DNA from: a virus
Lineage: Duplodnaviria; Heunggongvirae; Uroviricota; Caudoviricetes
Virus record (IMG/VR): IMGVR_UViG_643348547_000011
Length of the DNA: 17,041 nt
Reading direction: 5' to 3' (one strand)
Part shown: in pieces, positions 5,716 to 6,665 of the stretch
Numbering within the stretch: position 1 is the stretch's first letter
Layout: the number at the start of each line of letters is the position of its first letter
The notes under the pieces: model-generated
What the model saw: the letters and a program-made list of their open reading frames with translations, nothing else
Databases searched by the model: none
Told to the model about the DNA's origin: nothing
Translations under genes and position numbers: made by a program

Positions 5716-6665
5716 CACGCATACTCCCAAATGATTGCAATACCAGCCATTCCGCTACCTCCGGCACGCTGCTGCGTCGCTCCACCGTAGACACAGGCAC
5801 CACCGCCTCCACCACCATGGCCATTAGCATTAATACCTTCGCCTACAATGGCTTGTGACCCAGCCCCCGCACCAAGGATTGAATCGCCGCCAGGCCCCCC
5901 CATCGCCAGACTGCCGGAATACCGAACGCCTGGTGAGCTATAACCGCTTCCAGACCCGATAATATTGGCACCTGTAAATCCCGGCTCAGTATATGCTCCA
6001 TACGGACCAACAACCCCAGGAGCAGTGCCTTCAGCAAGAACATTCCCACCAAGACCACCTTTGGCAATTATGGTATTGCCGAAAGAGGTTGCTCCCCCGG
6101 GAGCACCAACCGACGCACTTGCACCAGTGCCACCATATCCTATTGTCACAGTAGTTACGGTTGGATTATCCACGCGAGCTTTAACATACTCCCCAGACAT
6201 CCCCCCGCCACCACAAGCAGCATTATTGGGATAACCGACCTGACAACCACCACCGGCCCCACCACCACCAACAATTTCAACAATAATAAATCTTGTGCCT
6301 TTTGTCGGAGTGTATGTACCTGAGCTTTTAAACACCTGACACTGTATAAGCCTCCCGGAGCCATCTCCCAAACCAAGATTTTCGAGAGCCGTTTTCACCG
6401 TGCCGTCCGATTTGATATCACCAAACGGATTCTTGCGGCTTAACAGCAGCGCACGAAGCGCGGTAAGCAACTGGTCGTGCCGCTCCTTCTCCAGGCTGGC
6501 ACCGGAGGCCTCCACCACGCTGCAAAGTTCTTCCTGCAACATGTCAAAGTAGTCATCATCCAAATCGGTGGCAGGTGTGCCGGTCTGGGGGTTACCACGG
6601 GTAAAACCGTTCTTACCCGCGCCGAACTTATCCTTCTGCGCGGTTTTCGTGTCTATACGATGCAT
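5715..6665 (-). CDS. stf: Side tail fibre protein (e14 StfP-like N-terminus, glycine-rich distal part)
   Basis: 316-aa ORF with GGAG 6 nt upstream of the ATG at 6663-6665. The N-terminal ~95 aa ([47 protein letters not shown]...) is the conserved constant part of e14/Mu-type fibres as I recall it; the rest is Gly-rich fibre sequence. Followed immediately by tfa. Confidence 0.8.
6363..6388. other. Hin/Gin/Cin/Pin-type 26-bp inversion crossover site inside the tail fibre gene
   Basis: ATCTCCCAAACC-AA-GATTTTCGAGAG: both 12-bp half-sites approximate the Hin-family half-site TTnTCnnAAACC (about 10-11 of 12) around a 2-bp AA core, the same core as hixL. It falls at fibre codons ~93-101 ([10 protein letters not shown]), the constant/variable junction where Mu, P1 and e14 carry their crossover sites. 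Confidence 0.5.

Follow-up and report, generated by a model that had tools for sequence, protein, structure and literature searches.

A relic Pin-type crossover site in a prophage tail fibre gene of Escherichia coli and a junction with nrdI in a near-identical strain

Tail fibre gene and prophage remnant in the window

The IMG/VR virus record IMGVR_UViG_643348547_000011 (17,041 bp; the whole stretch of DNA that was analysed, hereafter the window) matched E. coli O7:K1 CE10 (NC_017646.1, 3,119,242–3,136,280) at ~100%, and three further complete genomes also matched the whole window at ~100%. The locus sits just downstream of ssrA. An intact tail fibre open reading frame (ORF) has a fibre assembly gene (tfa), an acyltransferase gene and a stub of an invertase gene (pin) on one side and baseplate genes on the other (Table 1). 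Mu gp43–48-like baseplate genes followed by an StfP-type fibre gene (names from the Prokaryotic Genome Annotation Pipeline, PGAP), a Phage_Mu_Gp48 Pfam match in the window, and 96% nucleotide identity of the tail module to phages SfV and SKA5 assigned the locus to the e14/SfV type. The window is a CE10-like, ssrA-linked tail-module remnant of an e14/SfV-type prophage and not a viable phage. The sequence studied here is a 26-bp element within the fibre gene (6363–6388). An initial annotation of the window had read it as a Hin-family crossover site placed in frame at the joint of the constant and variable parts of the fibre, with neither a partner site nor a functional invertase nearby.

Identification of a crossover site in the fibre gene

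Positions 6363–6388 consist of ATCTCCCAAACC (6363–6374, variable side), the core AA (6375–6376) and GATTTTCGAGAG (6377–6388, constant side), that is, two 12-bp inverted half-sites near TTnTCnnAAACC flanking a 2-bp core, which is the form of the Hin family. Over the site the coding (−) strand reads GCT CTC GAA AAT CTT GGT TTG GGA GAT (A-L-E-N-L-G-L-G-D), in frame within the 316-aa fibre ORF. The site lies where 96% identity of the fibre to K-12 StfP (aa 1–103, tblastn) ends and the Gly_rich_2 domain starts.

The stfP gene of e14 in K-12 has the site TTCTCCCAAACCAAGGTTTTCGAGAG, identical to that of the window at 24 of 26 positions and with a 96% identical flank. This e14 site is the experimentally used inversion point of the P segment, the end points of which have been reported (PMC12529663), and PinE, PinQ and PinR all invert the P segment (PMC12529663). 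The second e14 site, TTCTCCCAAACCAACGTTTATGAAAA, lies 67 bp upstream of pinE, and the segment between the two sites is 1797 bp. In alignment with e14 stfP and with Mu the motif is conserved at the fibre crossover position (Mu gix encodes Q-N-L-G-L-Q). By homology to the e14 site, 6363–6388 is identified as a Hin-family (Pin-type) crossover site, and the placement given in the initial annotation holds.

One base of the site, A at 6378, is derived: it is a synonymous G>A change, 2 bases from the core and specific to the lineage of the window (4 genomes). Five other loci of the same architecture that were examined read AAGGTTTT, keeping GGTTTT, and e14 stfP of K-12 carries CTCTCGAAAACCTTGGTTTGGGAGAA at the equivalent place. 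Thirteen other complete genomes differ from the window by one base over an 84-bp query.

Three half-site matrices were employed for scoring: one from sites read in this analysis, one without the e14 sites, composed of Mu gix, hix and cix, and a full matrix for comparison across loci. With the first, the window site scored 22.0 bits, and the maxima of random 17-kb sequences had a mean of 8.8 and a highest value of 16.5. It scored 21.1 bits with the full matrix and 16.5 bits with the e14-free matrix, a score that was reached by 7 of 1000 random 17-kb sequences. None of 200 shuffles contained a match to the site with three or fewer mismatches. As a control of sensitivity, the full matrix recovered the second sites of e14 (28.7 bits), Mu (30.1 bits) and phage SKA5 (15.6 bits). 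The motif encodes a conserved peptide, and protein constraint alone could shape DNA into a chance resemblance to a Hin-family site inside a coding sequence; against the 24/26 identity to a proven site with homologous flanks, the shuffles, the e14-free scores, and the homology breakpoints of four independent phage groups that fall exactly at the site, such a resemblance has a negligible probability and is refuted by the tests run.

Loss of the local switch

No second site was detected in the 17-kb window: the next best 26-mer scored 6.8–8.0 bits across the three matrices (7.0 with the full matrix), below random expectation and far from the 15.6–30 bits of the controls, and searches of the window for exact, 3-mismatch and core-pattern matches gave nothing above chance. 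Sequences at 4168–4193 and 4690–4715 were considered as partner sites and rejected, scoring only 3–6 bits within the AT-rich acyltransferase region.

The adjacent invertase is, as first described, a pseudogene. Its 48 codons align only to PinE aa 138–185 (77% identity, tblastn) with two in-frame stops, and PGAP labels it ‘internal stop; incomplete; missing N-terminus’. The stub comprises the C-terminal helix-turn-helix only; nothing remains of the catalytic domain, of the enhancer region or of the upstream crossover site. Joining the fragments 3914–4057 and 15742–15912 into one split invertase was rejected, for their identities to PinE differ and the second fragment belongs to a separate remnant, linked to ypjC, on the far side of an IS3-family insertion sequence (IS) and an AIDA-like pseudogene.

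In known systems a Fis-bound enhancer lies inside the 5′ part of the invertase gene. Neither the window nor 46 kb of CE10 around the site contained a match to nt 1–123 of pin, gin or the SKA5 invertase gene, in a search by homology that a non-homologous Fis site would escape. The Hin enhancer is located ~100 bp from hixL, and the mechanism relies on the Fis-bound enhancer (PMC3798978).

An alternative fibre cassette was also missing: no StfE or TfaE homologue was found in the window (tblastn). When the locus is set against SKA5, in which the switch is intact, and against SfV, the acyltransferase gene, of low GC content (31–36% versus 52–56% around it), is seen to occupy the place of four elements: the alternative cassette, the invertase-proximal site, pin codons 1–137 and the 5′ part of pin that holds the enhancer. 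Because the acyltransferase gene replaces all of these, the local switch is dead. With no partner site, a C-terminal invertase stub and no alternative cassette, the fibre is locked locally in one orientation, in agreement with the initial annotation. A shufflon or tyrosine-recombinase switch was set aside, since the site is of the serine-invertase type and a pin stub adjoins it.

A junction of nrdI and the fibre tip at the core of the site

Scoring of 46 kb of CE10 around the fibre site gave one further site-like sequence, a 26-mer within nrdI, 29.5 kb away and outside the window. This sequence, ATATCGAAAACGTTCGTAAAGGAGTA, is at ~3,155,139 of CE10 (L020 10140–10165); it is conserved and is present in K-12 too. 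It ranked second in the 46 kb with 15.4 bits (third best, 7.0 bits), a score comparable to that of a genuine invertase-proximal site, its core is inverted relative to that of the fibre site, and the rank was obtained from the matrix independently of the junction described below. Its strong half is identical at 11 of 12 positions to the outer half of TTATCGAAAACGTTGGTTTGGGAGAA, a genuine invertase-proximal site; its other half is weak (6.1 bits). In two IMG/VR contigs (L141 11717–11739 and L142 9557–9579), TTATCGAAAACGTTGGTTTGGGAGAA is found 57 bp upstream of an intact Pin that is 87% identical to PinE. The matches of these contigs to the nrdI–tip pattern proved to be genuine invertase-proximal sites and not nrdI junctions. 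An AAACG-TT form of half-site, as in TTATCGAAAACGTTGGTTTGGGAGAA, is in natural use by this variant of the Pin-type switch.

A search with the fibre tip matched a protein (P0009) consisting of NrdI(1–119) fused to the tip at ...DIENV/GLGDGSG (the slash marks the joint). It is encoded on a Logan contig of 45.5 kb (ERR2910147_143) with the order gabP...nrdH-nrdI′/tip-tfa-acyltransferase-pin stub-GIY-YIG-restriction-modification-primase. The contig is 99.99% identical to CE10 from gabP to nrdI and 99.95% identical to the window from 6385 to 1. The nrdI parent reads gatatcgaaaacg TT cgtaaagg (...gaaaacg TT cgtaaagg), the fibre parent gctctcgaaaatc TT ggtttggg (...gaaaatc TT ggtttggg) and the junction gatatcgaaaacg TT ggtttggg (...gaaaacg TT ggtttggg). 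The bases on either side of TT are diagnostic of the parents, indicating that the exchange occurred inside the 2-bp core. Strand exchange at the core of the site is thus probable in a ~99.9% identical relative; the sequence of the window itself is without the junction.

The fibre gene and nrdI lie on opposite strands (− and +, respectively), so the observed order requires inversion of ~29.5 kb, from ~3,125,602 to ~3,155,139 of CE10. The NrdI(1–119)–tip fusion is in frame, the core occupying codon positions 2–3 in both genes, and a one-residue variant of the fusion protein was found in four more contigs. Any E. coli strain with a Pin-type site near nrdI could undergo a like inversion.

The pin stub and the acyltransferase junction of the window are present in the inverted strain as well, indicating that the inversion followed the loss of the local invertase and that an enzyme was needed in trans. 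The initial annotation had allowed for an invertase elsewhere in the genome acting on the site, and the exchange with nrdI after truncation of pin is natural evidence for it. Further pin-like loci, one to several, lie outside the window in CE10-group genomes; a query of an anchor plus pinE matched six places in CE10. Action in trans is documented for an inversion in prophage Phi4 of EC958, the invertase of which is truncated.

Alternative origins of the junction

Several observations weigh against an enzyme-made inversion. The inversion is known from a relative, and all four complete genomes of the window's lineage are un-inverted; the nrdI–tip junction was found in 0 of 5,426 complete E. coli genomes. 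The reciprocal junction, StfP(1–97)–NrdI(C-terminus), was not found among 5.8 billion proteins, nor was its DNA pattern in metagenome or viral contigs, so that the inversion is deduced from the geometry of one junction. Wild-type Hin-family enzymes need an enhancer in cis, and no homologue of one was found within 46 kb. The window site carries the G>A change 2 bases from the core. The candidates for the enzyme in trans are the pin-like loci of the CE10-group genomes. Finally, 8 bases of microhomology (TCGAAAAC) flank the junction, leaving a small chance of an illegitimate event.

These observations could be accommodated by an inert fossil site and a nrdI–tip junction formed by microhomology-mediated illegitimate recombination or a replication error: the parents share TCGAAAAC...TT around the junction, an enhancer homologue and a local invertase are lacking, and the junction is rare. 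Such an origin is nevertheless unlikely, given that the exchange falls strictly inside the 2-bp core, the cutting point of Hin-family enzymes, that in 46 kb no 26-mer apart from the fibre site itself resembles a site as closely as the partner, the core of which is oriented as inversion requires, and that the half-site of the partner matches a genuine Pin site at 11 of 12 positions. The chance of both endpoints falling in these dinucleotides is ~1e-4 or less. We infer that a Pin-family enzyme made the nrdI–tip junction.

Could the fibre and nrdI sites instead form a working, reversible switch of ~29.5 kb, operated by a prophage invertase in trans and toggling the integrity of nrdHIEF and the expression of the fibre? 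Both orientations occur among near-identical strains, both fusions are in frame, and the action of PinQ and PinR on the e14 sites and the EC958 inversion are precedents in trans. We regard such a switch as unlikely: each assembly has one junction and one orientation, mixed populations are not in evidence, there is no enhancer in cis, and the nrdI site is weak in one half (6.1 bits). Moreover, inversion leaves NrdI inactive and the nrd operon in two parts, an outcome suggestive of damage rather than regulation. As the best partner is 29.5 kb away in nrdI and no enhancer homologue was found, action in trans is probably rare and does not amount to a working switch.

The site as a boundary of fibre tip exchange

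The constant part of the fibre is common to e14, SfV, SfI/II/IV and SKA5. Megablast homology to all of these begins exactly at 6364 and continues through the constant part. The 316-aa fibre ORF is intact in six loci, i.e. in every locus of the same architecture examined, and none of the same-architecture loci with inspected flanks has an intact invertase. The Gly-rich tip is joined to at least eight unrelated N-termini, always at xLGLGDGSG.

On the other side of the site, a ~2.4-kb block (3953–6387) containing the pin stub, acyltransferase gene, tfa and the Gly-rich tip recurs at 98% identity in a prophage of a different, myovirus type, with the site as its right edge. This block is carried by NRZ14408, strain 81 and E. 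coli B (bio/attλ region) (L008 2634–5068, L007 2634–4914). As judged from these alignments, the site is the exact boundary at which fibre tips were exchanged between unrelated phages.

The receptor-binding tip and the putative surface-modifying acyltransferase move together within the block, which may mean that recognition and modification of the receptor are functionally linked.

The mosaic joint also affects annotation. PGAP labels the intact fibre ORF ‘stfP pseudogene, missing C-terminus’, and some genomes add a separate ‘glycine-rich domain-containing protein’; many database copies of the fibre are named ‘carbohydrate kinase’, which looks like an artefact of the joint. PGAP breaks one intact fibre ORF in two, an ‘stfP pseudogene’ plus either a ‘carbohydrate kinase’ or a ‘glycine-rich protein’, an annotation problem that we flag here.

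Frequency of orphan sites

Eighty IMG/VR contigs with the site were sampled, of which 42 had enough downstream sequence to be judged. A second site was found in 32 of these 42 (15 with a full invertase in view), and the site was an orphan in the remaining 10. SfV, a complete functional phage, has the identical 26-bp site without an invertase homologue and without a second site. The exact constant part–site–Gly-rich junction occurs in 17 complete E. coli genomes. Thus the orphan state of tail-fibre crossover sites is common, and the site of the window belongs to a long-known class.

Other genes of the remnant

The coordinates of the features are listed in Table 1.

Table 1. Features of the window and the evidence used for their assignment
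Feature	Position	Strand	Evidence
EcoRII-like restriction-modification pair	1–2719		
LEM-3-like GIY-YIG gene	3029–3853		
Invertase (pin) stub, 144 bp	3914–4057	−	tblastn
Acyl_transf_3 gene	4253–5278	+	Pfam PF01757, E=2.6e-26
Tail fibre assembly (chaperone) gene of the locked variable cassette	5320–5715	−	Pfam Caudo_TAP, E=2.5e-23; PGAP ‘tail fiber assembly protein’
Tail fibre ORF, 316 aa, intact	5715–6665	−	
Fibre variable C-terminal part (Gly_rich_2 receptor-binding tip)	5715–6374	−	Pfam PF21722, E=2e-10
Pin-type (Hin/Gin/Cin family) crossover site, 26 bp	6363–6388		
Fibre constant N-terminal part, StfP-type, aa 1–~97	6377–6665	−	tblastn, megablast
ymfQ, then Mu gp47/46/45/44/43-like baseplate genes	beyond fibre ORF		PGAP
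Tape-measure gene cut by IS3-family element	~11727–13811		IS orfA/orfB 12598–13811
AIDA-like pseudogene	between IS3 and second recombinase fragment		
Second serine-recombinase fragment	15742–15912	−	PinE aa 38–94, 67% identity

The prophage element is incomplete: the IS3 element interrupts the tape-measure gene, and with this gene cut the head, sheath and tube genes are absent here. Since the whole prophage is a truncated remnant, the locked fibre is without consequence for any virion. In the AR_0013 and OZ546943 copies a group II intron (ltrA) sits within the IS. The second recombinase fragment, beyond IS3, adjoins a ypjC-like pseudogene, resembles the pinH-type remnant of K-12 and lies outside the fibre switch.

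Between ssrA and the remnant, positions 1–3853 encode an EcoRII-like endonuclease, a Dcm-type methyltransferase and a LEM-3-like GIY-YIG nuclease, forming a small defence-type island that is present in few genomes. A GC-rich perfect palindrome, TTATTAGGGGGGCCTCCCCCTAATAA (5280–5305), was seen by eye in the interval that separates the acyltransferase gene from tfa, two genes that converge. A role as a bidirectional terminator is probable (compare the annotated terminator between orf22 and gtrV of SfV); a simple terminator scan did not flag the palindrome.

Discussion

The identity of the site, the missing partner, invertase and enhancer homologue, the boundaries of the mosaic and the sequence of the junction were observed directly, and that the site is a relic of a dismantled Pin switch is established. 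It is likely that in a near-identical strain this relic, of the e14/SfV family, also underwent core exchange with nrdI through an invertase acting in trans. That the site is still a substrate for invertases in trans is probable, and a working long-range switch is unlikely.

Positions 6363–6388 are the ‘left’ crossover site, the one inside the fibre gene, of a serine-invertase switch of Pin type that belongs to the e14/SfV family. In intact relatives (e14, SKA5), Pin inverts ~1.8 kb between the fibre site and a site just upstream of pin, swapping the C-terminal, receptor-binding part of the fibre. With the low-GC acyltransferase gene in place of the missing parts, the local switch is inoperable and the fibre is fixed with its glycine-rich tip. 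The site may have persisted for encoding the conserved L-E-N-L-G-L-G joint of the constant and variable domains, and the loss of the switch may be recent. In the near-identical strain, core exchange with the site-like sequence of nrdI, 29.5 kb away, would have inverted the chromosomal segment and fused NrdI(1–119) to the tip; the local pin having already been destroyed, the invertase would have been supplied in trans.

The site alone is a textbook relic, one more tail-fibre crossover site that has lasted longer than its switch and that marks a seam where phages swap receptor-binding tips. The new element is the natural nrdI inversion; the site itself is of a known kind. If invertases of other prophages still recognise orphan sites, pairing with look-alike sites in core genes is possible, which would lead to inversions of tens of kb and to gene fusions in clinical E. 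coli lineages. The nrdI–tip junction is a concrete case, testable by PCR, of off-target activity of Pin-family invertases in natural genomes.

A broader proposal is that the fibre and nrdI sites constitute a long-range (~29.5 kb) inversion pair in the CE10/AR_0013 lineage, acted upon by a prophage invertase in trans. We think this rather unlikely. Were it true, leftover phage sites would act as latent hot spots at which the core chromosome could be rearranged by resident invertases, and the rearrangement would break nrdI, uncouple nrdEF from nrdHI and possibly reverse.

Comparison with known inversion systems

The closest counterpart is the P segment of e14 (stfP/tfaP–tfaE/stfE–pinE), with which the locus shares the fibre constant region (96% aa identity) and, at identical codon positions, the site itself (24/26). 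The baseplate neighbours are also alike (ymfQ and gp47-, gp46- and gp45-like genes), and the pin stub of the window is 77% identical to the C-terminus of PinE. However, e14 has the second site TTCTCCCAAACCAACGTTTATGAAAA, the 1797-bp invertible segment and an intact PinE, whereas the window is without all three and has a different (Gly-rich) tip and an acyltransferase gene instead.

Phage SfV resembles the locus in another way. The identical 26 bp stand in its orf21, its 37 kb contain neither an invertase nor a second site, and directly after the fibre assembly gene lie gtrA/B/V on the opposite strand, a position to which that of the window acyltransferase gene is analogous. SfV and SfI, SfII and SfIV, which are serotype-converting Shigella phages with Mu-like tails, provide a precedent for an orphan site beside a conversion gene. 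SfV is complete and viable, with gtrA/B/V and an integrase, whereas the window is a tail-module remnant with an acyltransferase gene and a pin stub.

SKA5 (OR670062) shares its tail module with the window, as well as the fibre constant part (96% nucleotide identity from 6364). Its intact order is integrase, DinI-like gene, invertase, site, stf′, tfa′, tfa, stf (with site) and ymfQ, and the layout of integrase, DinI-like gene and invertase beside the fibre genes matches that of tRNA-Pro-linked locked loci. It differs from the window in having an intact switch, with a 187-aa invertase, the second site ATATTTGAAAGGTTGGTTTGGGAGAA (15.6 bits) and the stf′/tfa′ cassette.

More distant are the G segment of Mu (Gin), the C segment of P1 (Cin) and the H segment of Salmonella (Hin), the sites of which are likewise 26-bp imperfect dyads with a 2-bp core. 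Those of Mu and P1 are in frame at the Sc/Sv joint and encode ..NLGL.. (K-P-L-F-I-Q-N-L-G-L-Q for Mu gix). The Mu, P1 and Salmonella systems are complete, with two sites, an enhancer and an enzyme, whereas the window keeps one site.

For the exchange with nrdI, the precedent is the ‘quasi-site’ recombination of Cin (Iida & Hiestand-Nauer 1986/1987, cited in PMC4134206). There a genuine site and a degenerate site sharing the core dinucleotide recombine, and the nrdI event fits this pattern. It also fits that of prophage Phi4 of EC958, on which an invertase encoded elsewhere acts. The quasi-site work of Iida and Hiestand-Nauer reportedly used laboratory plasmids. In contrast to that work, the nrdI case involves a housekeeping gene of the chromosome as partner, natural isolates and a genuine site that is an orphan.

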